Assembly: GCA_964415205.1 (NCBI GenBank)
Contig: CAYPZH010000002.1
Location: 10,507-48,696, forward strand
Length of the DNA: 38,190 bases
Source: an uncultured Actinomycetota bacterium
GTDB taxonomy: Bacteria; Actinomycetota; Geothermincolia; Geothermincolales; RBG-13-55-18
Reading direction: 5' to 3'
The translations under genes were made by a program, and so were the position numbers. Shown here in pieces: positions 2,753-27,285 of this stretch. The notes beneath the pieces were generated by a model. The model was not told where the DNA came from and searched no databases. It saw nothing but the letters and a program-made list of their open reading frames with translations. Numbering within the stretch: the first letter of the stretch is position 1; each line of letters starts with the position of its first letter.

Positions 2753-2902
2753 TGGGACGCACCGCGTAAGCGATCGGGCCTTCTTCGGCTCGGCGGTAGC
2801 GGTGCCATGACGCCTCTGAACGATAAGGCCTGGCGGATATGAGCTTGGACCAGACGACGGATGTGCGGGGCTGGGCCCGGTTGCGGCGCTGTATACCCAG
2901 AG

Positions 2903-3880
2903 TCAGGAGTGCCGGAGACCGCGCAGTATCCGCTCGCCCTCCTCCACCATGCGGCGGATGGCCTCGCCTGCGGGCAGGACCTCGCCGATGGCGCCGGCGC
3001 ATTCCCCCGCGATGACCAGTCCCCTGGTGACGTCACCGTCCCGGAAGGTAGCTGGAGCACGCAGCCATGCTTCGGTCACCCGGGCCGCCCTTTCCTCCAG
3101 GGGCAATGCCTCCAACTCGCGCGCAGCGTCGTTGGACAGGACCCGGATGCTGCCCGTGCCCATGGAAAGGACCATGGTCTCGCCCGGGCCGGCCGCGAGC
3201 AGCGCCCGCTTCACGTCGGGGTGGATACTGCATTCCTCGCTGAGCATGAGGCGGGTCCCTATCTGTACGCCCCTCGCGCCCATAGCGAAGGCGGCGGCGT
3301 AGCCGCGCCCGTCGTGTATGCCGCCGGCGGCTATGACCGGGACCTCTACCATGTCCACTACCTGGGGGACGAGGTTCAGGGTGGATACCGGTCGCGAGGC
3401 CTGTACGCCCCCTGATTCTCCTCCCTCGGCGACCACGGCATCCACGCCCGCCTGCTCAGCCTTCAGAGCCAGCAGGGGAGAGGGGACGACGTGGATCACC
3501 TTTATCCCCGCCTGCTTGAGCAGGGGCGTCAGGGCGGCGGGGGAACCGGCGGAGGTGGTGGCGACGGTTATGCCCTCCTCCGCCAGCACCTCCACCATGG
3601 AGGCGGAGAGGGGATTCCGGGCCACCAGGTTCACGCCGAAGGGCTGGGCGGTGAGAGCGCGGATCTCGGCGATGGCCCTACGCAGGCCGTCCAGGTCAAG
3701 TCCCACCGTAGCCAGCTGGCCGAGGCCGCCGCCCTCGCTCACGGCGGCCACCAGCTCTGGGTTGGAGATGGTGCCCATGGCCCCCATGATCACCGGGTAT
3801 TGCGTGCCCAGGAGTGCGGCCACGCTCTCCATCGGCGGCACGCTGCTTTCGCCACTTCCTCCCGCCGTCCTGCCGCTCAT
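2903..3880 (-). CDS. NMO-family FMN oxidoreductase (nitronate monooxygenase / FabK-like enoyl reductase family)
   Basis: 325-aa ORF containing YPVIMGAMGTISNPELVAAVSEGGGLG, VIAAGGIHDGRG and GARGVQIGTRL, which are typical of PF03060-type TIM-barrel flavoenzymes. Its ATG (3880-3878) overlaps the TGA (3879-3877) of the upstream Fe-S gene as ATGA, indicating translational coupling. Confidence 0.8.
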   Translation of the reverse strand: MSGRTAGGSGESSVPPMESVAALLGTQYPVIMGAMGTISNPELVAAVSEGGGLGQLATVGLDLDGLRRAIAEIRALTAQPFGVNLVARNPLSASMVEVLAEEGITVATTSAGSPAALTPLLKQAGIKVIHVVPSPLLALKAEQAGVDAVVAEGGESGGVQASRPVSTLNLVPQVVDMVEVPVIAAGGIHDGRGYAAAFAMGARGVQIGTRLMLSEECSIHPDVKRALLAAGPGETMVLSMGTGSIRVLSNDAARELEALPLEERAARVTEAWLRAPATFRDGDVTRGLVIAGECAGAIGEVLPAGEAIRRMVEEGERILRGLRHS

Positions 3881-4932
3881 ATCAAACCCCTGTCCCTAAG
3901 GATATTAGCGTTCATCTCCACCACGTTGGCGGGCGGGGCCTCTGTCCCTTCCTTCAGCACCATCTCGACCGCGCCGGCGGGGCAGGTGGAGACGCACAGG
4001 CCGCACCCGATGCAGCGCGCCTCGTCCACGCTCATGAAGTCGGCGCTCTCCACGATGGCGTCTATCTGGCAGCGCTCCCGGCAGGTCCCGCATGCCGTGC
4101 ACGTGTCGGGGTCGATGCTCGCCCGGTAGGAGGAAAGGACGTGGTCCGCCGGGCGCTCATGGGAACGCAGCCCCCGGAACTGCCCGCAGCAGCACGAACA
4201 ACAGCAGCAGATGTTCACGATGCTCTGGGCGTTGCTGGGGCAGAGCACCAGGGCGGCCTCCTCCGCCTGATCCAGAATGGCCAGGCATTCCTCCAGGGTT
4301 ATCATGCGCCCCAGGCCGTTCTCCTCGTAATACTCGGCGGCGAAGCCGAAACTGAGGCAGGTCTCTACCGGCCTCTCACACGCCTGCCCCAGCAGCCCCT
4401 GCTCCACGCGGCAGATGCAGTCCGCAACGGCGAACTTGTCCTGGCCTCTCACCAGCTCGCGGACGCAGTCGTAGGTGGCGACGCCCTTCATGCCTTCCAC
4501 GGCGGTGCCCACCGGCACCACCCGCATCTGCTTCGTTTTCACCCTGTACCAGGATTCGCTGAGGTAGGGCTCGTAGTCGTGTATGAGCTGGGCGAGTTCG
4601 CGGTCCATGCTCTTGAGGTGGAACTCGTACACGCCGACCAGGAAAGACATGGCCATGTACAGAGGCCCACCATCGGTCCTTATCCTGAAGATGTTCCCCC
4701 GCCTGGCCATGGACTCCAGCATTTCCGCCGCCTTATCTTCTTCCAGGCACGCCCGCGCGGCTATGGCCGCAGCCGTTTCCGGGAAGTTATGCAGGTGCAT
4801 CACCAGTTCCGCCTCCTCGGGGGTGAAATATCTCTCCAGCAGCCTCAGCTCGACCCCCGTCCCGGTGGCGGGGAAGCCCCCAGGCATACGGTCCATGAAC
4901 TCCCGCAGCCTCATGTAAACGTCGTCAGCCAT
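3877..4932 (-). CDS. Poly-cysteine multi-cluster Fe-S protein, paralog 1 (2x[4Fe-4S] ferredoxin-type C-terminus)
   Basis: 351 aa. It has the N-terminal MADDVYxRLxxxxDxMP...LFTPEEAEL module, a CICR..C..C patch, a CCCCSCCC run (nt 4186-4209) and two CxxCxxCxxxCP ferredoxin motifs (CTACGTCRERC, CIGCGLCVSTCP). Confidence 0.75.
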   Translation of the reverse strand: MADDVYMRLREFMDRMPGGFPATGTGVELRLLERYFTPEEAELVMHLHNFPETAAAIAARACLEEDKAAEMLESMARRGNIFRIRTDGGPLYMAMSFLVGVYEFHLKSMDRELAQLIHDYEPYLSESWYRVKTKQMRVVPVGTAVEGMKGVATYDCVRELVRGQDKFAVADCICRVEQGLLGQACERPVETCLSFGFAAEYYEENGLGRMITLEECLAILDQAEEAALVLCPSNAQSIVNICCCCSCCCGQFRGLRSHERPADHVLSSYRASIDPDTCTACGTCRERCQIDAIVESADFMSVDEARCIGCGLCVSTCPAGAVEMVLKEGTEAPPANVVEMNANILRDRGLI

Positions 4933-4941
4933 CTCGACCCC

Positions 4942-6027
4942 TTAAGGTTTGATGACCTCGAGGAAAGCGTCCAGCTTGCCCTTCTCCTGCAGGATCTTCA
5001 TGCCCATCTCGCCGGTCGTCTGCGGGGGCTCGCGGTACTCCTCTACCTTGACCAGGTGCAGGGCCTCCTCGGGGCAGCCGCTTACGCACAGGCCACAGCC
5101 GATGCAGCGGTCGCGGTCTACCGACGCGACTTCTTCGGCCACCTTTATGGCGCCGACCGGGCACCTCTCGTCGGCACAGACGCCGCAGCCGTTGCACAGC
5201 TCCGCGTCCACCACAGGCATGAAGCCGGAGGAGGCGAAGACCGGGGCGTTGCCCCACTCCAGGCTCATGCGCAGCAGGCCGCAGCAGCAGGTGCAGCAGT
5301 TGCACACGAAGGTCAGGCTCTCCTGCACGTTGTTGATCTGGTGCACCAGGCCCGCCCGGTCGAACTCCCGCAGCTTCTCCTTCATCTCCTCTTTGCTGAG
5401 GTAGCGGCCGAAGCCGCGCTCCACCAGGTAGGTGCAGGTCTCGTCGAAGAGCATGCACGCCTCGCGCGGGGCGTCGCACTTGCGCTCCATGTCGCGGCAG
5501 GCGCAGGTGCCGATGCCCACCACCGTGGCGTTGTCGATCATCTCGTAGACCTTCTGGTAGGGGAGCACTCCGGGCTCGCTCTCCACCTCCTCCTGGATGG
5601 GGATGATGCGGGAGAACCTGGTCTCGGTGCCGCCGAACCCTTTGCCGAGCTTGGGCAGGTAAGCCTTCCACAATGGCGTCAGCTTTTCCCGCATCTCCTC
5701 GCTCATCCCCTTCATGTAGGGGAACTCGAAGATGCCGGGCATGACCGGGAGCAGGGCGTAGCCGAGCCTGCCTTCCTTCTCGCGCACGAAGACCACTGCC
5801 TTGTCCGCCAGGGACTCGAGGCACCTTGCCGCCGTTTTCTCGTCCACCCCGGCGCGGCGGGCCACGTCCGCCACGCCGAAAGGCCGGAAGCCCAGCCCCA
5901 GGGCCACCCCGGCCTCCTCCTCGGTGAAGAACACCTTGAGGATGTCGATGATCTCGGGCGCCGCAGTGCATCCCGTGGGATGGCGGTCCAGCAGCTCCCG
6001 CAGGCGTTCGTACACTTCATCTGGCAT
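4942..6027 (-). CDS. Poly-cysteine multi-cluster Fe-S protein, paralog 2
   Basis: 361 aa and collinear with paralogs 1 and 3: MPDEVYERL..., CACR..C..C, CNCCTCCC (nt 5281-5304), CNGCGVCADERCP and CIGCGLCVSGCP. The gap to the next gene is 9 nt. Confidence 0.75.
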   Translation of the reverse strand: MPDEVYERLRELLDRHPTGCTAAPEIIDILKVFFTEEEAGVALGLGFRPFGVADVARRAGVDEKTAARCLESLADKAVVFVREKEGRLGYALLPVMPGIFEFPYMKGMSEEMREKLTPLWKAYLPKLGKGFGGTETRFSRIIPIQEEVESEPGVLPYQKVYEMIDNATVVGIGTCACRDMERKCDAPREACMLFDETCTYLVERGFGRYLSKEEMKEKLREFDRAGLVHQINNVQESLTFVCNCCTCCCGLLRMSLEWGNAPVFASSGFMPVVDAELCNGCGVCADERCPVGAIKVAEEVASVDRDRCIGCGLCVSGCPEEALHLVKVEEYREPPQTTGEMGMKILQEKGKLDAFLEVIKP

Positions 6028-15271: not shown

Positions 15272-15866
<595 letters not shown>

Positions 15867-15917: not shown

Positions 15918-18900
15918 CTAGCCGTGTTCGAGACGTGCCAATGCTTCTCGAGTGCGGGTGAGCCAGTAGGAGTCGGGGATAACTGCCATCTCGAGCAAGA
16001 GTTCTTCTGCCTTGTGAAGGCTCTCAAGGGCTTCTTCCTTTTGGCCGGCCAGCTCGAAGACCTCGCCGAGGAAAAGAAAGCCCAAAGCCGAGATCGGCTT
16101 CGACAACATCTCCTCGGCCATGGAGATCCCGCGCCGGATTTGCTCCGATGCTTCTCGCAACCGAGAGGGCGCTTCTTCTCCCCCCGCCCTCCCCAGGGCT
16201 ACTAAAGCCATCGCCTCAAAGAACACCGCCCCGTGCTCACGCGCCAGCCTCAAGGCCTCTTCCGCATGCGCCCTTGCTCTGCCGGGTTCCCCTGCTCCGA
16301 GGTCAACCAGGGACAATGCCCATGAAGAAAACGGCAATATGATTGGTACACCGCTTTCTTCATTTACCTCGCTGCCCTTCTCGATATCCTTTCTGGCGGT
16401 TTCGTAATCGCCGAGGAAGAAACGGCCCAGCCCCAACCAAAGCATCGCGGTGCCCAGGAGGAACTTCACCCCCGAATCCTCGTAGCGTTCGATGGCCCTG
16501 CTCGCGTGATGGACCAGGCCATCCGCGTCCCCTTCGGGGAACGCAACGAGGCAGTATGTTTGGTCGATGTATCCGGCTCCGAAGACCTCACCGATCTCAA
16601 GGGTATGCTCGAGCCCTTTCTCCAGCACCGCCTTTGCCTCCTCGAATTCCCCCATCATCCCCAGGGCCTGGCCGCACCATGCGCACTGATCGCTGTATAC
16701 GGTCCATGGCCCCACTTTGAGCTCTTTTTCCAGGTGCTTCTCCTCCAGCACCTCGATGACCCTGCGGGCGATCATGGCGACCTCAAGGAAATCTCCCGAG
16801 AAGAACAGGGAGCTGCAAATGTCGAAAGCGGCCAGGGACATAAATCTGATGTCCCCGGCCTTCTCGGCGGTGTCGAAGCATTTCCATGAGTATTCCACAC
16901 CCAGCGATACGTCTCCCCTCAGGGTGTGGAAGAGGGAGAACCTGCTGTAAACGGCGACCAGGCTGCCCTTGTCCCCGAGTTCCTCGGCGAGCCTTTCCGC
17001 CTCCTCGAGGAAACCGATGCTGCCCTCGGGAAAGCCCAGGAAGAAGGCGGGGTCCAGGATGGAGATGAGGATATCCAGCCTGGCTCGCTTGGTATCCTTG
17101 CTCTGCGGCTGGGAGTCGAGTATGCGTATGGCCTCCTCGTAGAGGCGGATGGCCTCCCAGTTGGCGTAATCGTGCGTCGCCTTGTCCCCGGAGAGCCTGA
17201 GATAGCGTATGGCCTTCTCCGTGTTCTCGCTCCTGGAATAGTGGTGGGCTAGGGCCTCGTAGAAGTCCTCCAGGCGGTCGGCGTAGAGCCCCTCTATCGC
17301 CAGGCCTGTCCTCTCGTGCAGCTCCCTCCTTCTCTTGAGCGGGAGGCTCTCGTAGGCCACCTCCTGGGTAAGGGCATGCTTGAAGATGTATTCCGGCTCG
17401 GGGAATAGGCTCTTCTCGTAGATGAACTCCTGGGACTGCAGGGCGTGGAGGGTGGACTTTAAGACCTTACCCAGGCCGGTGACCTCCTCCAGCAGGCGCA
17501 GGGAGAACTCCCTCCCGATGACCGCGGCGAGCTGCAGGACCTCCTTCTCTTCCTCGGGCAGGCGGTCCAGGCGGGAGGCGATGATGCCCTGCACGCTGTC
17601 CGGCACCCTGATCCGCGAGGGCTCGGCGGAGAAGGCGTAGCGCCCGCCCTCCTTCGCGATGGAGCCCGACTCCAGAAGGGAGCGGGTGAGCTCCTCGATG
17701 AAGAGGGGATTGCCGGCGGCCTTCTCGGTGATGAAGTCCGAGATCTCGCGGGATACCTCGCCCTCCGCGAGGATCCCTTCCACCAGCATGGTACTCATGC
17801 CCTCAAGGAGGCTCTCCACCCTTACCTGGCTGTAGAGGGTCCTGCTGGTCCAGGCAGGGGTGTAATCGGGGCGGTAAAGAAGTAGGAGGAGAATGGAGGC
17901 TGTGGGCATGCTCTCCATGAGATAGGAGAGGAAGTCCTCGCTCGTCTTGTCCATCCAGTGCAGGTCCTCCACCGAGACTATCAGGGGCCTCTTGCGGGAT
18001 TCGGCTACGAGCAGGTGGCGGATGGCATCGAAGGCCCTCTCCCTTCGTTGGGCGGGCTCCAGGGCGAGGTAGGATTCGTCGTCCACGGGAAGGGAGAGCA
18101 AATCCTCGAGGGGCGGGAGGATGTGGGAGAGCTGGCCGTCCAGGGGGGCCAGCCCTTCCTCCAGCTTGCGTTTGCTCGCCTCCTCGTCCTCTCCCTCTGC
18201 GATATCGAAGTAGGACCGCAGGATGTCCAGGATGGGGAGGTAGGCGATGGCCTCCCCGTAATGGACGCAGCCCCCTTCCAGGTAGGTGTATTCGCCTTCG
18301 GGGAGGGCCTTCCTGAACTCGAGCAGCAGGCGGGACTTGCCCATGCCGGGCTCACCCACCACCCCCACCACCTGGCCGGAGCCCTCTCTTACCCTCTCGT
18401 ATGCGTGGGCGAGGTGCTCCAGCTCCCTCTCCCGGCCCACGAAGGGGGAAAGGCCGCGGGCGAGGGAGGCGGATATCCTGGTCCTGGCCGGACCCGGCGA
18501 GATGAGGTTCCAGGCCGGCCGCTTTCTTCCCTCCACCTCCACCTCACTGACTTGAGCGAACTCGAAGTATCCCTCCGCCGGGCGGAGGGTGGTCTCGGAC
18601 ACGAGGACCTCTCCCGGTCCGGCGGCGCTTTTCATCTGCGAGGCCAGGTTCACCGTATCCCCCAGGGGGGTGTAGGACATGGAGAGGTCATCCCCTACGC
18701 CCTCCACCTTGATTAGGCCGGTGTTAGCCCCCGCGCGCAGGGTGAGCTCCATCCCCTTTGGCTTGAGTCTCTTTTCGTATTCGGAAAGGCGCCTCACTAT
18801 CGCCAGCGCCGCATAGAGTGCTCTCTGGGGGTCGTCCTCGTGGGCCAGGGGGGCTCCGAAGATGGCGGTGAGGCCGCCGCCTGCGAGCTGGGCTATGGTG

Positions 18901-19550
18901 CCCTCGTATCTGTGGACCTCCTCGGCCATGATGTCTACGGCCGGGCGCAGGAGGTCGTGCACCTCCTCGGGGTCGAGCTTCTCAGAGAGAGCGGGAGGAA
19001 GCGATGCGCCGGCACAGAGCACCGTCACCTGCTTGCGCTCTCCCTCCAGGGAGGGGCGGTGGGAGAGTACCCGCTCAGAAACATCCCCTGGCGCTGAGGG
19101 AACAGTGGTGGTAGTGGAGTACTCCCTTTCCCCGGGCTGGATGCCCAGGGCTCGGAGGCCCTCGATGATACTGGGTATAGTGGGGGAGAGGTCCCCTTCC
19201 TCCGAGCAGAGCATGGCCGTCCCCCCCAGGGCGTGTCGCCACTCCGGCTGGCATTCCTTGAGCTCGTCGGGGGTCACCCCCACCAACACGGGCACGAAGG
19301 GTATCCCCCTCTCGAAGGCCCCCACCACCTCCTTTGTCACCTGGTCGGATGCGAGGGCGGCGGGGGTGGCCAGCAGCACCAGGGCGTCGCAGGCCTCCAT
19401 GGCCCGGGTGATCTGGATAAGGTAGGAGGTGCCGGGAAGTACGTCCCGCTCGAAGAACCAGGCGGCATATCCCGCCTCCTCCAGCCCTTGTGCCAACTCC
19501 CGCATCAGGGGCTCGTCCTCGATGACGTGGCTTACGAAGATGTTTCCCAT
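15918..19550 (-). CDS. Giant TIR / degenerate class III cyclase-homology / P-loop STAND (AAA_16) / TPR protein
   Basis: 1210-aa ORF. Residues 1-~135 are TIR_2-like (IFVSHV, WFFERD, SDQVTKE with Glu74 at the catalytic-Glu position). Residues ~170-350 form a cyclase-homology domain (ERKQVTVL, IFGAPLAHEDDPQRA, GDTVNLA). Residues ~365-620 form the NTPase (Walker A GEPGMGKS, Walker B-like LIVSVEDLHWMD). Residues ~760-1210 are TPR-like helical repeats. Confidence 0.85.
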   Translation of the reverse strand: MGNIFVSHVIEDEPLMRELAQGLEEAGYAAWFFERDVLPGTSYLIQITRAMEACDALVLLATPAALASDQVTKEVVGAFERGIPFVPVLVGVTPDELKECQPEWRHALGGTAMLCSEEGDLSPTIPSIIEGLRALGIQPGEREYSTTTTVPSAPGDVSERVLSHRPSLEGERKQVTVLCAGASLPPALSEKLDPEEVHDLLRPAVDIMAEEVHRYEGTIAQLAGGGLTAIFGAPLAHEDDPQRALYAALAIVRRLSEYEKRLKPKGMELTLRAGANTGLIKVEGVGDDLSMSYTPLGDTVNLASQMKSAAGPGEVLVSETTLRPAEGYFEFAQVSEVEVEGRKRPAWNLISPGPARTRISASLARGLSPFVGRERELEHLAHAYERVREGSGQVVGVVGEPGMGKSRLLLEFRKALPEGEYTYLEGGCVHYGEAIAYLPILDILRSYFDIAEGEDEEASKRKLEEGLAPLDGQLSHILPPLEDLLSLPVDDESYLALEPAQRRERAFDAIRHLLVAESRKRPLIVSVEDLHWMDKTSEDFLSYLMESMPTASILLLLLYRPDYTPAWTSRTLYSQVRVESLLEGMSTMLVEGILAEGEVSREISDFITEKAAGNPLFIEELTRSLLESGSIAKEGGRYAFSAEPSRIRVPDSVQGIIASRLDRLPEEEKEVLQLAAVIGREFSLRLLEEVTGLGKVLKSTLHALQSQEFIYEKSLFPEPEYIFKHALTQEVAYESLPLKRRRELHERTGLAIEGLYADRLEDFYEALAHHYSRSENTEKAIRYLRLSGDKATHDYANWEAIRLYEEAIRILDSQPQSKDTKRARLDILISILDPAFFLGFPEGSIGFLEEAERLAEELGDKGSLVAVYSRFSLFHTLRGDVSLGVEYSWKCFDTAEKAGDIRFMSLAAFDICSSLFFSGDFLEVAMIARRVIEVLEEKHLEKELKVGPWTVYSDQCAWCGQALGMMGEFEEAKAVLEKGLEHTLEIGEVFGAGYIDQTYCLVAFPEGDADGLVHHASRAIERYEDSGVKFLLGTAMLWLGLGRFFLGDYETARKDIEKGSEVNEESGVPIILPFSSWALSLVDLGAGEPGRARAHAEEALRLAREHGAVFFEAMALVALGRAGGEEAPSRLREASEQIRRGISMAEEMLSKPISALGFLFLGEVFELAGQKEEALESLHKAEELLLEMAVIPDSYWLTRTREALARLEHG

Positions 19551-19831: not shown

Positions 19832-20044
19832 ATGCTTGAGGAGCGCAAGATCAAAGAGGAATGGGTCAGGTCGGCTTTGCGGGATCCCGAAAGGAAGGAG
19901 AAGAAGGAGGATGGAACGGTCGATTATCTGAGGTCTATCGAGGAATTCGATAATCATTATCTGCGAGTCGCGGTAAACCCGGACGCGCAGCCGCCTAGGA
20001 TCGTTACCGTCTTCTTTGACCGGCGACTTGGGAGGAAGACATGA
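19832..20044 (+). CDS. DUF4258-family protein (putative toxin), possibly N-terminally truncated
   Basis: 70 aa from ATG 19832. The family-like sequence RDFIYTEHALD continues in frame upstream as far as TAG 19796-19798 with no ATG/GTG/TTG. It overlaps the next gene by 4 nt (ATGA). Confidence 0.6.
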   Translation: MLEERKIKEEWVRSALRDPERKEKKEDGTVDYLRSIEEFDNHYLRVAVNPDAQPPRIVTVFFDRRLGRKT

Positions 20045-20241
20045 GGTTGAGAATCGACCAGCAGAACGATGCGTTATATTTCCGCCTCGATGAATCGGAG
20101 ATCGTTGAATCGGAAGAGGTCCAGCCCGGGGTGATCCTGGACTATGACGCCAAGGGCAACGTCATCGGCATCGAGATGCTCGATCTTAGCAAGAGGGTAT
20201 CGAGCGAAAACCTCAAGAACCTGCAGTTTGAGACCCCCTAG
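20041..20241 (+). CDS. DUF2283-family protein (putative antitoxin partner of DUF4258)
   Basis: 66 aa. MRLRIDQQNDALYFRL...GVILDYDAKGNVIGIEMLDLSKR is the typical DUF2283 pattern. Confidence 0.7.
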   Translation: MRLRIDQQNDALYFRLDESEIVESEEVQPGVILDYDAKGNVIGIEMLDLSKRVSSENLKNLQFETP

Positions 20242-20516: not shown

Positions 20517-23500
20517 CTATCCCTGGCCGAGCCGCGCCAATGCTTCCCGGGTGCGGGCGAGCCAGTAGATCCGGCCCGTCTCTTCGCATATCTTCTCGGC
20601 TCTACGCAGGCACTCCAGGGCCTCCTCTTTCCGCCCCGCCTTCTCGCATACCTCCCCCGCAAATAGATCCCCCAGTGATTTCATCCCACTCGCTCCCATC
20701 TCTTCATAAAGGGACATACCCTGGCGTATGTGCTGCAGGGCGGCATCGACGTGCGATGGATCTGCCTCACACTCTACCCTTCCTAGATACAGCAGGGAGA
20801 AAGCCTCCAACATCTTTGACCGATAATTCCTCGAAAGCGTAAGTGCTTCTTCGGCGTTCCTCAAGGCGTTCCCGGGATCTCCCGCAGCCAGCTGGAAAAG
20901 GGCCAACTGAGACTCGAGCTGAGGCGTGACGATGGGTGCGCCGACCTCCCGGTTTAGCTCCACTCCCTTCTTCGCGTATTCAACCGCTTCCCCGTACTCG
21001 CCCAGCATGTAATGCCCCCACCCCAGACAGGTCAAGGGGAATCCCATGTAGAAACCAAGCCCCGTCTCCTCGAAACACTGCAAGGATCTGCGTGCGTGCT
21101 CGATCACCGCATCGGGATCTCCCTTGAAAGATAACAACAGGCTGTAGAAGTACTCTATCCAGCCGGTCCCAAAGGTGTCCCCGACCTCGAGGGTGTGCTC
21201 GAGACCCCTCTTGAGCACGCTCTCCGCCTCATCGAATTCTCCCAACCACGTTAGAATCATCCCGCGCCATCCGCATTGATGGCTGTACACCATCAATCCG
21301 CCCACCCTGATATCATCCTCCCTGCGATGTTCCTCGATGAGTCTTATGATCCTGTCCGAGATAATGCCCACGTCCTCAAGGCGTCCCACATAATGCATGG
21401 GGACGCAGATATCGAAGCCGGTCTCGGCCATGGTGTCGACGTCCCCCGCCTTCTCGGCCGCATCGAAGCACTTTGCACAGTACTCGATTCCAAGGGATGT
21501 GTTACCTCGAAGGGTTTGATATCGGGCCAGAATGCCGTAGATCTTGGCGAGAGCCCTCTCGTCGCCGAGTTCCTCGGAGAGTCCCTCCGCATTCTCGAGG
21601 ACCTCCATGCTTCCCTCGGGGTAATTCAAGAGGTAGAGCGAGTATATCATCGACAGGTAGACATCCATCTTCGCTTTCTTGTTCTCCTCGCTCTCGGGCT
21701 GTTCATCCAGCAAGCGTATTGCCTCCCTGTAATAGTTTATTGCCTCCCGGTTGGAGTAACTGCGCGCGGCCTTGTCCCCGGAGAGTCTGAGGTAGCCGAT
21801 GGCTTTCTCTGTGTCGTCACTTCTCGAGTAATGGTAGGCCAGCATCTCGTGGAACTCCTCCAGGCGGTCCGCGTAGATACCCTCGATGGCCCGTCCTATC
21901 CTGGCGTGTATCTCCCTCCTGCGCTTGATAAGCAGGCTCAGATAGGCCACCTCCTGGGTGAGGGCGTGCTTGAAGATATACTCAAGCTCCGGGAAGATGC
22001 TCTTCTGATAGATGAACTCCAGCTCCTGCAGGCTCGAGAGACTGGACTCGAGCTCCTCCTCGAGGCCGGTGATGGCCTGGAGCAGGCGAAAGGCGAACTC
22101 CCTCCCTATCACCGCGGCTACCTGCACGAGCCCCTTGAGGCTCTCCTCCAGGCGGTCCAGGCGGGAGGCGATGATGCCCTGGATGGTGTCCCGGCACCTC
22201 GATGTCGGTGGGCCTGCCCGAGAGCACGTAGCCGTCGTCATCCTTGACGATGGAGCCATTCTCCAGAAGGCCGTGGGTGAGCTCCTCGATGAACAGGGGG
22301 TTTCCGGCGGCCCTGCCCACGACGAGGTCGCATATCTCCTCCGCCACCTCACCCCCGGCCAGGATGGACTGGACCAGGTCGGCACCTTTCTCTTCAGGCA
22401 GCTGGTCCACGCGGACCTGGCTGAAGAAGGTCCTGGCAAACCAGGCCGGAGTGTAATCGGGGCGGTAGAGGAGCACGAGCAGGATGCTAGCGGTGGGCAG
22501 GGAATCGATGAGATAGGCGAGGAACTCCTCCGAGGTCCTGTCTATCCAGTGCAGGTCCTCCACCGTGATAACAAGGGGCTTTAACTGGCTCTCCGCGACG
22601 AGCAGGCGGCGGATGGCCTCGAAGACCTTGAGCCTCCTCTGCTGGGGCTCCAGCTTCAGGTACTCCTGGTCCTCCACCTCGAGGGAGAGGACCTCATGGA
22701 GCGGGGGTAGGATATCATCCAGTTGCCCGTCGAAGCGGGCCGTCCTCTCACCTATCCTCTTCTTGATGACGCCCTGGTCCTCCCCCTCGCCTATGCCGAA
22801 GTAGTCTCTCAAGATCTCAAGCACGGGCAGATAGGGGATGTCCTCGCCGTAGTGATAACACCCGCCCTCCAGGCAGGTGTAGTCGCCTTGCGGGAGGGAG
22901 CGGGTGAACTCCACGGCCAGCCTGGACTTACCCACCCCCGGCTCTCCGATCACCCCCACCACCTGGCCCCGTCCTTCCCGGACCTGCCCCAGGTAGTAGG
23001 CGAGGTGCTCCAGTTCCCTCTCCCTGCCCACGAAGCGGGTGAGGCCCCTGGCCAGGGAGGCCTCCACCCTGGTAGCGGCATGCCTGGATGAGAGGACCCG
23101 GTATGCCCTGAGCGGTGCCTCCTCTCCCCGCACCTCGATCTCGCCCAGGTCCTCGAAGTCGAAGTAGCCCTCGGCGAGATGGTAGACGGCTTCGCTGACG
23201 CAGATGTCGCCCGGCTCCGCGGCGTCCTTCATCCCCGCGGCCAGGTCCACGGTGTCCCCCACGGCCGTGTACTCCATGGCCAGGTCGTCCCCTATCCTCC
23301 CCACGATGACCAGGCCGGTGTTTAAGCCCATGCGCAGGCTGCATCTGAGCCCCCTGGCCTCGAGCCCCTCGGCATGATCGCCGAAACGCCGCCGCATATC
23401 CAGTGCTGCATGCAGGGCGCGCCGGGGATCGTCCTCGTGGGCGATGGGCGCCCCGAAGATGGCCATGATGCCGTGCCCCGTGAACTGGGCTACGGTGCCC

Positions 23501-24156
23501 TCGTAGCGGTGGATCTCCCCGCTCATGAGCTCCAGGCAGGGCGCGAGGAGATCGTGGAGCTCCTCGGGATCCAGCTTGCCGGAGCCGAGCCCGGTGATCT
23601 CCACGCAGAGCACCGTTACCTGCCTGCGCTCCCCCTCCACAGTGGAGCGTGCGGCGAGTATCCTCTCGGTCAACTCTCTGGGGGCACGGTATGCAGGACT
23701 GGATATGGCGGGGGTGAGGGCTTCCGCTTTTCCCTCCTCCGGCTGTATGCCCATGGCCTGGAGCCCATCTATTACACGTGACACGGCCTGGGGTAAGCCC
23801 TCGGATCCCACGGTGAACATGGCCGTCCCCCCCAGGGCGTGCCTCCATTCCGGCTGGCGCTCCTTGAGCTCCGGGGGGGTGACGTCGACCAGGACGGGGA
23901 AGAAGGGGATCCTCCTCTCGAAGGCCCCCACCACCTCCTTGGTCACCTGGTCGGATGCGAGGGCGGCGGGAGTCACCAGCAACACCAGGGCGTCGCAGCA
24001 CTCGATGGCCCGGGTGATCTGGATGAGGTAGGAGGTCCCGGGAAGGACGTCCCGCTCGAAAAACCAGGCGGTGTATCCGGCGGCCTCCAGCCCACGGACT
24101 ATCTCCCGCATGAGGGGCTCGTCCGCGATGACGTGGCTTACGAAGATGTTTCCCAT
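20517..24156 (-). pseudogene. Second TIR / degenerate cyclase-homology / STAND / TPR paralog, split by a 1-nt frameshift
   Basis: ORF 21982..24162 (TIR, CHD, NTPase; true start ATG 24156, MGNIF...) and ORF 20517..22439 (rest of the NTPase plus TPR) are collinear with paralog 1. The reading frames switch at ...IEVP/DTIQGIIASRL, where this copy has gtcccggcac (CCC at 22190-22192) against gtccggcac in paralog 1. Confidence 0.8.
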
Positions 24157-24200
24157 ATGCACCCCTGCTTGATCTCTCCGTTGATGCTGGCTCTTTCAGA

Positions 24201-24430: not shown

Positions 24431-24444
24431 AGGAGGTGATGAAG

Positions 24445-24675
24445 ATGGCCCGCCAGATAGAGCTCACCAGGATGTCCAGCAAGGGGCAGGTGGTAATCCC
24501 CAAGAGGATCAGAACCCAGTTGGGCTTCGAGGAAGGAGACCGCATGACGGTAGAGGCAAGGGACGGTGAGATCGTCCTGCGCAAGCTGTCCCTGGAGGAT
24601 ATCGTGAGGGAGGCTGAACAAGACTGGCGCAGCAAGAAGTCCGTGCGCCTCTACCCGAAGGGCTCCGGGAAATAG
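24445..24675 (+). CDS. AbrB/MazE/SpoVT-family antitoxin
   Basis: MARQIELTRMSSKGQVVIPKRIRTQLGFEEGDRMTV... is a SpoVT-AbrB swapped-hairpin motif. I prefer ATG 24445 (8 nt after AGGAGG) to the GTG at 24436 in the track. Confidence 0.75.
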   Translation: MARQIELTRMSSKGQVVIPKRIRTQLGFEEGDRMTVEARDGEIVLRKLSLEDIVREAEQDWRSKKSVRLYPKGSGK

Positions 24676-24678
24676 CCT

Positions 24679-24963
24679 ATGTGGGAGGTGCACGGCTCCC
24701 GGTGCGTGGCCAAAGCGCTGGAGCGGTACGGCAGCGTTCTGACGGGTTGTTACGATAGGGCCTTTGCCAAGCTCTCGCAGCGTCCTCGCTCGGGAAAGCC
24801 GCTCAAAGGTTACGAAGGGCTTTTCAGCCTGCCTGTCACAACCCCCGGAGGGGAGCACCGCATTATATACCAACTCAAGCCGGAGCATAAGGTCGTCTAC
24901 GTGGTGCTCACCGGTCCGCGAGAGGAGATCTACGAGATATTGAAGAGAAGCGGCTTGAAATAA
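24679..24963 (+). CDS. RelE/ParE-family type II toxin
   Basis: 94 aa beginning 3 nt after the antitoxin stop. ...KLSQRPRSGKPLKGYEGLFSL...HRIIYQL..EHKVVYVVLTGPREEIY fits the RelE/ParE fold pattern. Confidence 0.75.
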   Translation: MWEVHGSRCVAKALERYGSVLTGCYDRAFAKLSQRPRSGKPLKGYEGLFSLPVTTPGGEHRIIYQLKPEHKVVYVVLTGPREEIYEILKRSGLK

Positions 24964-25322: not shown

Positions 25323-26559
25323 ATGGAAATCACGCGTGTTTTCGTAGTGGGCGCGGGCTTTATGGGCAGCGGCATAGCCCTGGCAGCGGCATCCTCCGGT
25401 TACCAGGTCATGATGTTTGACTTGAGCGGGGAACGCCTGGACGCAGGGGTGGCGAACATAAGGAGATCGCTTCAAAAGCTCCTGGACAGAAAAAAATTAC
25501 CCGGGAAGAACATGATGCCACTCTGGGCGGCCTTAAACAGCGACGGATATTGGACAGGCCGGTGACGCGGAGCTCGTGATCGAGGCGGTGACGGAAAAAG
25601 TCGAGTTGAAGAGAGATGTGTTCAGCCGTTTGGATGGGATCTGCCCCTCACATACCATTTTAGGAACCAATACCTCGGCCCTCCCCATAACCTCCATAGC
25701 AGCCGCTACTGCCCGACCGGACAGGGTAGTGGGCATGCATTTCTTCTTCCCCGTACCCCGCGTGCGGCTATGCGAGATAATGGCCGGCCTGCTCACTTCC
25801 CATGAAACCATGCTGATTGCATCTGCATGGGTTGACTCGCTGGGCAAAGATACAATAATGATCTGGAAGGACCACGCTGGCTTTATCGCCAACCGCATCA
25901 ATCTTCTCATCTCGATCGAAGCGGTTCGCCTTGTGGATGAGGGAATCGCGACAATAGAGGAGATCGACCTGGCGACGGGAGGAAGCGACTCCCAGATGGG
26001 TATTATCCAGCATATGGATTATGCCGGACTGGATACAGCTTTCAACTCTTTTTCAGCCCTCTACGAGGATACCAGGGAGGCCAGGTTCTTCCCGCCTCCA
26101 CTGCTGCGCCGCATGGTGGCTGTAGGCCTGCTGGGTCGCAAGGCAGGAAGGGGGTTCTACGATTATACCAGCGGTAAGCGTGCGAGTTTTGTGAAGTTGA
26201 GTGGCGATGAAATAGCAGCGCAGAGCGATGAAGAACGACAGCAAAGGTACGCCTGGTTGAACCAGAGGATCTTCATGCCCTCTATTCTAGAGGCGGTGCG
26301 CGTCTTGGAAGCAGAGGTTGCATGCGCAGAGGACATAGATAAGGCTGCTCGCCTGGGCATGAATCTTCCCCTTGGGCAGTTGGAGATGGCTGATAACATA
26401 GGCCTGGATGTTGTGACCGAAACCGCGATGGCCTTCTATAAAAACTCAGGGGAAGCAGGATTCTTCCCGCCTCCCCCGCTGCGCCGCATGGTGGCTGCAG
26501 GCCTGCTGGGTCGCAAGACCAAAAAGGGTTTCTACGAATACCCTCCAGATAACGTTTGA
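25323..26559 (+). pseudogene. 3-hydroxyacyl-CoA (3-hydroxybutyryl-CoA) dehydrogenase, disrupted by two 1-nt frameshifts
   Basis: ORF 25323..25565 carries the Rossmann VVGAGFMGSGIA and ORF 25576..26559 carries the remainder (NTSALPIT, GMHFFFPVP, GFIANRI). The expected bridge ...RKKITREEHDATLGGLKTATDIGQAGDAELVIEAV is readable only by shifting frame at the A7 run (25490-25496) and again at aaa (25535-25537). The C-terminal 3HCDH_C-like segment is duplicated (FFPPPLLRRMVAVGLLGRKAGRGFYDY and FFPPPPLRRMVAAGLLGRKTKKGFYEY). Confidence 0.75.
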
Positions 26560-26644: not shown

Positions 26645-26999
26645 ATGGCTGAAAAGAGACTGATACTTGATTATCTGCAGGATATTCTGGACGCCATGGC
26701 AAAGGCTCGAGTTTTCCTGAGTGATATGAATAAGCAGCAAATACGAGGCAGATGATCGAACATCATATGCCGTCATCAGAGCACTGGAGGTGGCCGGGGA
26801 AGCTGCGCGCCATATCCCCGAAGAAATAACCCAGAGATATTCCAAGGTCCCCTGGGGCGATATGATCGGGATGAGAGACGTGTTGATCCATGATTATATC
26901 GAGGTGGATCTGGAAGCGGTATGGTTGACCGTCAAGGACGATCTCCCGAAGGCCGAAGAGGAGATCAGGCGGATCATCAAGGAGTTGGGCGATGACTGA
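26645..26999 (+). pseudogene. hepT: HepT (DUF86, HEPN-domain) toxin, frameshifted
   Basis: ATG 26645 opens MAEKRLILDYLQDILDAMAKARVFLSDMNKQQ..., which stops at 26753-26755. The family sequence continues in the frame of ORF 26790..26999 from ~26739 (KYEADDRTSYAVIRALEVAGEAARHIPEE...), with the HEPN Rx4HxY motif in MRDVLIHDY. The shift maps to caaata (A run 26739-26741). Confidence 0.7.
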
Positions 27000-27285
27000 T
27001 CTGGAAAGGTTTAAGCAAACGCTGAACGAGCATAAGACGGAACTAGAAAAGGAGTACTCGGTAAGCAATATCGGCTTGTTCGGTTCCTACGTGCGCGATG
27101 ATCAGGACGCGGGAAGCGACCTGGACATACTGGTGGAGTTCTCGCAGCCCATAAGCCTGCTGAGGTTCGTGAACCTGAAGCGCAGGCTGAGCGATATCCT
27201 AGATGTTGAAGTTGACCTGGTCATGAAAAAAGCGCTGAAGCCGAGAATCGGCGAACGTATCCTCTCCGAAGTCGTTTATATCTAG
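26992..27285 (+). CDS. mntA: MNT-type nucleotidyltransferase antitoxin (MntA-like)
   Basis: 97 aa with the minimal NTase motif GLFGSYVRDDQDAGSDLDILVEF. It overlaps the end of hepT by 8 nt (ATGACTGA). Confidence 0.8.
   Translation: MTDLERFKQTLNEHKTELEKEYSVSNIGLFGSYVRDDQDAGSDLDILVEFSQPISLLRFVNLKRRLSDILDVEVDLVMKKALKPRIGERILSEVVYI

Follow-up and report, generated by a model that had tools for sequence, protein, structure and literature searches.

The window analysed here is a stretch of 38,190 nucleotides from an uncultured Actinomycetota bacterium (GenBank assembly GCA_964415205.1, contig CAYPZH010000002.1, positions 10,507–48,696 of the forward strand). The gene considered lies on its minus strand and encodes a TIR-effector STAND protein built on a cyclase-AAA_16-TPR chassis (Table 1). 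The open reading frame (ORF) has 1210 codons and zero internal stops, its product begins with MGNIFVSH as in the homologs, and its GC content at third codon positions (GC3) of 0.82 is typical for coding frames of a window with 60–66% GC. A Pfam scan of the 1210-residue protein located TIR_2 at residues 4–94 (E = 4e-15), Guanylate_cyc at residues 173–344 (E = 1.4e-13), AAA_16 at residues 369–555 (E = 3.6e-30), and TPR_2, TPR_12 and TPR_MalT matches that extend to residue 1202; no helix-turn-helix (HTH) or other downstream signalling domain was found in the 1210 residues by the same scan. The initial annotation, made from the sequence alone, had described a single uninterrupted ORF joining these four modules and ending in TPR-like repeats, and had named significant TIR and cyclase profile matches as a test of that description; the translation and the Pfam matches bear it out. 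A scan for promoters and terminators gave 0 promoter-like sites, and terminator-like sites were at the level expected from shuffled sequence. A protein search returned the sequence itself (100%) and RJP35145.1 as the nearest ortholog (79% identical), and the nearest relatives are proteins from Actinomycetota metagenome-assembled genomes (MAGs). Residue comparisons were made on an alignment of 121 sequences, 77 with a TIR domain (76 database homologs and the N-terminal half of a second copy of the gene in the window) and 44 without.

Table 1. Features of the four-domain gene and of its surroundings, in window positions.
Feature	Position	Strand	Basis
Complete gene: TIR, degenerate cyclase, AAA_16 STAND NTPase, TPR (1210 aa)	15918..19550	-	ORF, translation, Pfam, homologs
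TIR domain, aa 1–135; Glu74 codon 19329–19331; BB-loop-like ERDVLPGTSY, aa 34–43	19146..19550	-	TIR_2, alignment, AlphaFold2
Flexible linker between TIR and cyclase, aa 136–168	19047..19145	-	Low pLDDT, low conservation
Class III cyclase-homology domain, aa 169–350, catalytically degenerate	18501..19046	-	Guanylate_cyc, residue alignment, Foldseek
Codon of cyclase residue G181	19008–19010	-	
Codon of cyclase residue G225	18876–18878	-	
Codon of cyclase residue Q305	18636–18638	-	
STAND nucleotide-binding/oligomerisation module, aa 369–760, including the helical/winged-helix region after Walker B	17271..18446	-	AAA_16, conservation
Walker A GEPGMGKS, K405 codon	18336–18338	-	
Walker B VSVEDLHW (E528/D529)			
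TPR/MalT-like TPR region, aa 761–1210	15921..17270	-	TPR_2, TPR_12 and TPR_MalT matches
Second four-domain copy, split by +1 G	20517..24162	-	BLASTP, junction sequence, Pfam
Toxin–antitoxin-type pair directly downstream of the gene: DUF433 (15633–15854) and DUF5615, PIN-like (15272–15706)	15272..15854	-	Pfam
DUF4258/DUF2283 small-gene pair between the copies	19832..20241	+	Pfam
MazE-type antitoxin/ParE-type toxin pair upstream of the second copy	24436..24963	+	Pfam
MNT-type nucleotidyltransferase	26992–27285	+	PADLOC candidate family PDC-S09 (E = 4e-29), sole PADLOC match among neighbours

The TIR_2 profile (PF13676) matches the protein with 56.7 bits (cutoff 28). Glu74, within the segment SDQVTKE, falls in the column of the catalytic glutamate of BtTIR (7uxr), PdTIR (3h16) and TIR-STING (6wt6) in pairwise alignments of weak significance (E = 1e-3 to 2e-2). 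Its equivalent is invariant in all 77 TIR-bearing homologs, as is the motif S[DN]QV[TS][KRS]E around it, and the extended motif S[DN]QV[TS][KRS]E[VI]V is almost invariant; the earlier alignment of Glu74 to the SxWxxxE-type catalytic glutamate thus stands. AlphaFold2 models were obtained for residues 1–362 and for residues 1–140, the latter representing the TIR alone with a predicted local distance difference test (pLDDT) of 89 and a predicted TM-score of 0.85. Its Foldseek neighbours include AbTir (7uxu; E = 1.6e-7, TM 0.76/0.79) and the SPARTA TIR-APAZ (TMq up to 0.83), and RPPT, RUN1, Cat1, BtTir and SARM1 are among the other top PDB neighbours. The model shares with AbTir, SPARTA TIR-APAZ, SARM1 and plant RUN1/TNL proteins (TMq 0.76–0.83) a catalytic glutamate after the βC strand and a flexible BB-loop, but differs from them in sequence (14–23% identity), in a glutamine that replaces the motif tryptophan, and in its activating scaffold. 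The best match of the modelled fold is to enzymatic, oligomerisation-activated NADase TIRs rather than to adaptor TIRs, and the domain is probably an NAD-cleaving "executioner" domain. It is followed by a linker of about 35 residues with pLDDT below 50 at residues 141–151, which is the least conserved N-terminal segment (mean major-residue frequency 0.52).

The domain after the linker matches Guanylate_cyc (PF00211) with 51.3 bits (cutoff 21.9), and in the model of residues 1–362 (pLDDT 79) it adopts a cyclase fold, with TMt of 0.78–0.84 to Cya2, CyaB and Rv1900c in Foldseek. Cyclase homology at about residues 170–350 had been noted in the initial annotation, which missed the loss of catalytic residues. 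Alignment to Cya2 (2w01) and CyaB (3r5g) places G181 and G225 at the positions of the two metal-binding aspartates, Q221 at that of the substrate-binding lysine, and Q305 at that of the transition-state arginine, with Asn301 and Thr294 retained. Because both metal ligands and the transition-state arginine are lost, the domain is predicted to be unable to make a cyclic nucleotide monophosphate (cNMP), and there would therefore be no second signalling enzyme within the protein. The residue pattern identifies it as a predicted pseudo-cyclase, in which the fold is kept and catalysis is lost. RJP35145.1 has the same degenerate cyclase, and its TIR glutamate, Walker A and B motifs and most structural residues are also conserved with the window protein.

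The AAA_16 match (106 bits) lies in a region with a Walker A motif, an acidic Walker B motif and helical modules, followed by C-terminal repeats, as is characteristic of STAND proteins. Both the P-loop GEPGMGKS (K405) and LIVSVEDLHWMD (E528/D529), which had been picked out before, are present and conserved family-wide: the Walker A lysine is invariant in all 121 aligned sequences, and the acidic residues of Walker B are conserved. Among 50 TIR-bearing members, the mean major-residue frequency is about 0.7 for the TIR, the cyclase and the nucleotide-binding oligomerisation domain (NOD; 0.69–0.73 for the STAND module) and 0.51 for the C-terminal TPRs (residues 831–1210), which are the most variable part. 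The TPR end from about residue 830 is therefore presumed to be the ligand sensor. Such a pairing of an unvarying effector and switch with a variable repeat end is the pattern of NLRs, and by its sequence the protein looks like a relative of the NLR immune receptors of plants and animals.

A search of 5.8 billion proteins gave 3829 matches at E ≤ 1e-10, of which the best 120 were classified. TIR domains are found in 76 of these 120; these proteins are mostly full-length (about 1190–1230 residues), have TIR_2, Guanylate_cyc, AAA_16 and TPR matches, are 43–79% identical to the window protein, and come from Actinomycetota, Desulfobacterota-type and other MAGs. The TIR-less proteins among the best 120 have a double zinc ribbon or no N-terminal domain and are 45–60% identical. 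Automated names in the family include "TIR domain-containing protein" and "class 3 adenylate cyclase/TPR". The protein is not a singular novelty: dozens of full-length, machine-annotated members are already deposited, and it is a member of a sizeable uncharacterised family in which at least 77 homologs have this architecture. On a tree of the chassis, the TIR, zinc-ribbon and bare forms are intermingled, indicating that the N-terminal module has been swapped often, the options on the cyclase-AAA_16-TPR chassis being a TIR, a zinc ribbon, a kinase or none. A scan keyed on NOD motifs found the TIR-less chassis at no fewer than 571 loci (at least 571) in species-representative genomes, often with several per genome, and in multiple copies in Cupriavidus, Paraburkholderia, Pseudomonas and Rokubacteria. 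A TIR-specific metagenome scan yielded 101 relatives, for which 80 of the 101 loci were retrieved, about 50 of them with the full fusion. Tandem arrays are common, with two copies in the window, three at L006/L139, and further arrays at L090, L094, L104, L116 and L120. Within an array, TIR-bearing, zinc-ribbon and bare copies often occur side by side, and the cyclases of those without a TIR are intact. This family signature of conserved TIR and NOD, hypervariable TPRs, tandem arrays and N-terminal swapping fits an NLR-like sensor-effector.

Two further observations concern family members. At L104 (239–4765), a 1508-residue cyclase-AAA_16-TPR protein with an N-terminal region of about 480 residues that has no Pfam match is encoded directly upstream of a TIR-bearing copy; this region is another swappable module. 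One cluster of sequences that are at least 90% identical (P0022) includes proteins labelled Deltaproteobacteria bacterium RBG_13_43_22 (OGP52270.1) and Candidatus Methylomirabilis sp. (HEX9920666.1, partial), and these labels across phyla reflect either recent horizontal transfer or a binning error.

The decay of cyclase catalysis tracks the presence of the TIR across the family. The D/D/N/R tetrad is intact in 50 of the 77 TIR-bearing sequences versus 43 of the 44 TIR-less ones (Fisher p = 1.1e-5, with sequences treated as independent) and is degenerate in 27 and 1, respectively. These losses map to at least eight separate places on the chassis tree. After loss, the remainder of the cyclase domain is less conserved relative to the NOD (ratio 0.96 versus 1.08; Mann–Whitney p = 7e-5, without phylogenetic correction), while the corresponding ratio of TIR to NOD is unchanged (p = 0.27, likewise uncorrected). 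That cyclase catalysis has been lost repeatedly, and specifically in members with a TIR, is the most interesting new result of this analysis, and it points to the TIR as the operative output. On an evolutionary reading, the ancestor before TIR gain would have been a cyclase-AAA_16-TPR chassis with a proximity-activated cyclase as its output; the TIR would have been gained as a second proximity-activated output, and cyclase catalysis would then have decayed repeatedly. Such TIR-dependent decay offers a natural experiment in output replacement, in which an enzyme becomes a scaffold.

On balance, the gene product is probably an autonomous sensor-effector of the NLR-like STAND kind that acts through its N-terminal TIR and retains the cyclase as a scaffold. 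The variable TPR array would bind a trigger, for which a protein from a phage or another invader is the most plausible candidate. By analogy with STAND biology, the NOD, in which Walker A and B are intact, would then be released, bind ATP and oligomerise. The flexibly tethered TIRs, which have an NADase-type fold and the invariant glutamate, would cluster and form composite Glu74 sites that hydrolyse NAD+, with arrested growth or abortive infection as the outcome. Between TIR and NOD, the pseudo-cyclase would be a spacer with a structural and probably dimerising role. The putative pre-pairing of TIRs by the dimeric cyclase fold, which the initial annotation had proposed, is compatible with the results. 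A bolder version holds that the family is an unrecognised class of NLR-like receptors with two serial proximity-activated outputs, TIR and cyclase, in which the obligately dimeric cyclase fold acts as a licensing scaffold that pairs the TIRs; this is a speculative extension with a low probability. If it were true, it would imply a new geometry of TIR activation, members with an intact cyclase would send out two signals, a cNMP and one derived from NAD, and lineages of the window type would have been streamlined to a TIR-only output with the pseudo-cyclase left as an adaptor.

The same TIR subtype occurs on many other proteins. A profile of it matched 823 representative clusters at E ≤ 1e-30, mostly proteins of 300–600 residues, with partner domains that include WD40 propellers (11 of 63 sampled), α/β-hydrolase, TPR and Sel1 arrays, CARDB, cohesin, LVIVD and NHL propellers, and FGE-sulfatase. 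Since the subtype is joined to so many ligand-binding scaffolds, it appears to be a portable N-terminal module, as expected of an output or effector domain. Some of these proteins are unusual in their own right. Among P0124 (1773 residues), P0126 (2208 residues) and P0129 (619 residues), some have seven tandem TIR copies followed by WD40 propellers, and another has the order TIR-TIR-FGE-sulfatase. The FGE-sulfatase (FGS) domain is known as a sensor in bacterial conflict systems. At L149 (4636–13245), four tandem genes start with this TIR subtype and continue with differing domains that are usually extracellular (CARDB, cohesin-like and others), and the set resembles a receptor-like TIR cluster. 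The subtype is also found repeatedly with class III cyclase proteins: at L102, a TIR/α/β-hydrolase/cyclase protein (LipJ/Rv1900c-like with a TIR; 621–2450) adjoins a zinc-ribbon-cyclase-AAA_16-TPR gene (2822–5971).

The single-gene TIR-STAND/NLR antiphage proteins, namely the TIR-NLR of P4 satellites and TIR-bearing Avs/bNACHT-type proteins, share with the window protein an N-terminal catalytic-type TIR, a P-loop STAND NTPase and a C-terminal repeat sensor, as well as the autonomous one-gene organisation and diversifying paralogs. For the TIR-NLR of P4 satellites, a single gene, protection against phages has been demonstrated in E. coli (Rousset et al. 2022, PMC9122126). The window protein differs from these proteins in its AAA_16/MalT-like NTPase with MalT-like TPRs and in the class III cyclase-homology domain between TIR and NOD. 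Membership in Avs/AVAST or bNACHT was rejected, with no Avs, NLR or NACHT profile among the PADLOC matches. The cNMP cyclases, including inactive ones, and TIRs are listed as effector-region domains of NTP-dependent conflict systems by Kaur et al. 2020 (PMC7159879), where the TIR-cyclase-AAA_16-TPR architecture is not listed. Nor was a description of this architecture found in the literature, and the PADLOC matches are at the domain level only, in agreement with the earlier remark that a defence system of this kind is not known to have been described. Should the family be immune, an AAA_16/MalT-type, TPR-sensing branch would be added to the bacterial TIR-NLR repertoire, and the functionally obscure cyclase-AAA_16-TPR chassis, present in hundreds of species and often multi-copy, would be linked to conflict biology.

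Pycsar and Pucsar systems also combine a class III-type cyclase fold with a TIR, and weak PycC profile matches (3.4e-10) were obtained. Unlike these two-gene systems, the window protein is one polypeptide with a STAND switch and has no cNMP-binding domain on the TIR. Membership was rejected given the loss of catalytic residues, with no gene nearby for a TIR fused to a cyclic-nucleotide-binding domain (CNBD) or for a three-transmembrane effector; Pycsar-like self-signalling from cNMP to TIR was rejected for the 1210-residue protein because its cyclase is without both metal ligands. The August 2026 Pucsar preprint predicts that cyclases with a fused STAND NTPase (NACHT, AP-ATPase) make up a further immune clade, "immune clade 1", which it leaves for future work (bioRxiv 10.64898/2026.08.12.744502). 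Orthologs with intact and dead cyclases would provide matched pairs for this 2026 prediction.

The best whole-protein family match is TIGR03903 (TOMM system kinase/cyclase fusion), which aligns residues 169–1146 with profile positions 282–1249 (E = 1.4e-108, 364 bits, below the cutoff of 705.75). The collinear cyclase-AAA_16-TPR arrangement over about 1000 residues is common to both, and the chassis resembles the TOMM-kinase-cyclase type as well as the Rv0386 type named earlier. Unlike TIGR03903 proteins, the window protein has an N-terminal TIR in place of the Ser/Thr kinase (the alignment begins after the kinase) and a dead cyclase. Membership was rejected as the score is below the cutoff, there is no kinase, and no cyclodehydratase or TOMM genes occur within the window. 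An Rv0386-type LAL regulator was also rejected, as Pfam finds no C-terminal LuxR HTH and the cyclase is dead, no direct alignment to Rv0386 having been made. The glutamine in place of lysine at the substrate-defining cyclase position is also a feature of Rv0386. This chassis raises the alternative of a physiological signal transducer, in which an Rv0386/TOMM-like chassis regulates physiology and the TIR is a regulatory or interaction module or an NAD(P)-sensing input. At the N-terminus of the same chassis, the TIR may be replaced by a kinase or by zinc ribbons, neither of them a killing domain, and an apparently active cyclase is kept in the 50 TIR-bearing members mentioned above. However, the catalytic glutamate is invariant, the TIR fold is nearest to enzymatic NADases and not adaptors, and the cyclase, the supposed output, has been lost repeatedly in just those members that bear a TIR. 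Moreover, the protein has no HTH or downstream signalling domain, and a hypervariable TPR end, tandem arrays and pseudogenisation would be unusual for a housekeeping regulator. This alternative is considered unlikely.

The neighbourhoods of homologs offer a further view of both interpretations. Clustering of gene neighbours at 50 loci found no conserved partner, with no neighbour family in more than six of the 50; the top-ranking clusters consisted of ORFs that lie antisense within the gene itself, and otherwise only sub-clade synteny was seen. The gene is therefore self-contained. Several results weigh against the NLR-like sensor-effector. No known defence gene flanks the gene in the window or at the eight homolog loci inspected, where the neighbours are mostly housekeeping genes (mraZ/mur, rho/prfA, glycyl-radical enzymes) with occasional toxin–antitoxin (TA) pairs, as a physiological transducer would have it. 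A TIR-profile scan found no family copy on IMG/VR viral contigs. The TIR-less chassis proteins are conventionally regarded as signalling cyclases or regulators and are multi-copy in large-genome bacteria, which also speaks for physiological signalling. The SxWxxxE-type motif has Gln at the canonical Trp position, the cyclase-loss statistics count sequences as independent without phylogenetic correction, and the PADLOC matches to the protein (PycC, ThsB, SAVED-TIR, Aga-TIR) are weak and domain-level only. The earlier statement that the gene sits in a typical context of defence genes is thus weak: no known defence genes flank the gene in the window or at the eight loci, no neighbour family is conserved across the 50 loci, and there are no viral copies. 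A defence role for the gene is plausible, and the evidence for antiphage activity is circumstantial.

The neighbourhoods also bear on a Thoeris-like signal generator, in which the TIR would make a cyclic ADP-ribose (cADPR) isomer or a related signal, together with cNMP in orthologs with an intact cyclase, for an effector encoded in trans, instead of simply depleting NAD+. AbTir and BtTir, both structural neighbours, produce cADPR isomers, ThsB and ThcB4 profiles give weak matches, and most orthologs combine two nucleotide-processing domains. In addition, a SLATT_1 gene at L006 is co-oriented with, and directly upstream of, three tandem copies. However, no effector-like neighbour is conserved across the 50 loci, the SLATT association being a single case, no ThsA, SLOG, Macro or CNBD gene lies within the window, and in the known TIR systems that generate signals, the effector is encoded in the same operon. 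A signal generator of this kind is thus rated as rather improbable, slightly more so than physiological signalling. Thoeris membership itself was rejected, with a ThsB profile match of E = 2.6e-4 only and no ThsA-like gene in the window or conserved near homologs. The preferred interpretation is that of an autonomous sensor-effector with TIR output.

Two local arrangements were seen among the homolog loci. At L006/L007/L139 (1022–13624; ERZ27248180 k141_962073 and Ga0315280_10000301), a gene for a 539-residue membrane-effector-type protein with SLATT_1 and a DUF4231-like match precedes three TIR-cyclase-STAND-TPR paralogs that are arranged in tandem on its own strand, with gaps of 10–80 bp. 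The cyclase tetrad is intact in two of the paralogs; in the third, which lies in the middle, Glu occupies the first metal position. The SLATT_1 gene and the paralogs may form an operon that ties the family to a pore-type effector. In one sub-clade (L114, L115, L122, L123, L128 and L130), a conserved ORF of 105 residues lies convergently just downstream of the fusion gene (L130, 5676–5993, minus strand); it has a weak muconolactone-isomerase-like match (E = 6e-4) and may represent mere synteny or a lineage-specific partner.

The second copy in the window consists of two overlapping frames on the minus strand (21982–24162 and 20517–22439), which are 61% identical to the 1210-residue protein over residues 1–657 and 52% over residues 642–1210 (BLASTP). 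The neighbouring paralog noted in the initial annotation is thus present with the same four domains, though frameshifted into two ORFs. There is no lesion besides one surplus G in gtgccGGGacacc at about 22192–22196, and dropping one G restores ...EVPDTIQGIIASRLDRL; the copy is either a very recent pseudogene or the product of an indel in the assembly. Here too, the catalytic positions of the cyclase are degenerate (E, Q, H, T, D, G; tetrad positions E, H, D, G). By domain, the two copies are 79% identical in the TIR, 63% in the NOD, 54% in the cyclase, 52% in the TPRs and 33% in the linker. The TPR-coding 3′ ends of both genes (15918–17000 and 20517–21500) have a GC content of 0.55–0.60 versus 0.63–0.68 in the 5′ parts, which parallels the greater sequence variability of the TPRs. 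Nearby, a 3-hydroxyacyl-CoA dehydrogenase gene on the plus strand is also split between different frames, 25323–25565 (start of 3HCDH_N) and 25576–26559 (rest of 3HCDH_N and 3HCDH). A second frameshift within 38 kb hints at assembly indel errors or genuine gene decay.

These lesions, together with the dead cyclases of both copies, would suit a decaying remnant, with both copies on the way to becoming pseudogenes and the intact ORF without function. Against this, the ORF runs for 1210 codons without stops and has a coding-type GC3, its TIR glutamate, Walker A and B motifs and most structural residues are shared with the 79% identical ortholog of the same dead-cyclase state, and the single-base indels may be assembly errors. 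A functionless remnant is therefore very improbable.

The immediate surroundings contain four TA-type modules, three pairs and the MNT-type gene, and the GC content falls to 0.49–0.58 around the two large genes and the small modules, in line with the TA-dense, AT-patchy setting described at the outset, and the reading of this setting as a variable island holds. PADLOC recognised no system in the window, and no restriction–modification, CRISPR, CBASS or similar genes were found there. The DUF433/DUF5615 pair also occurs 3′ of the gene at the ortholog locus L001 and at L091. The wider window is metabolic, with genes for a pyrophosphatase, an SDR, an amidohydrolase, a CoA-transferase, an acyl-CoA ligase, a flavodoxin, the 3-hydroxyacyl-CoA dehydrogenase, a B12-radical SAM enzyme, an acyl-CoA dehydrogenase and a prismane-family protein.

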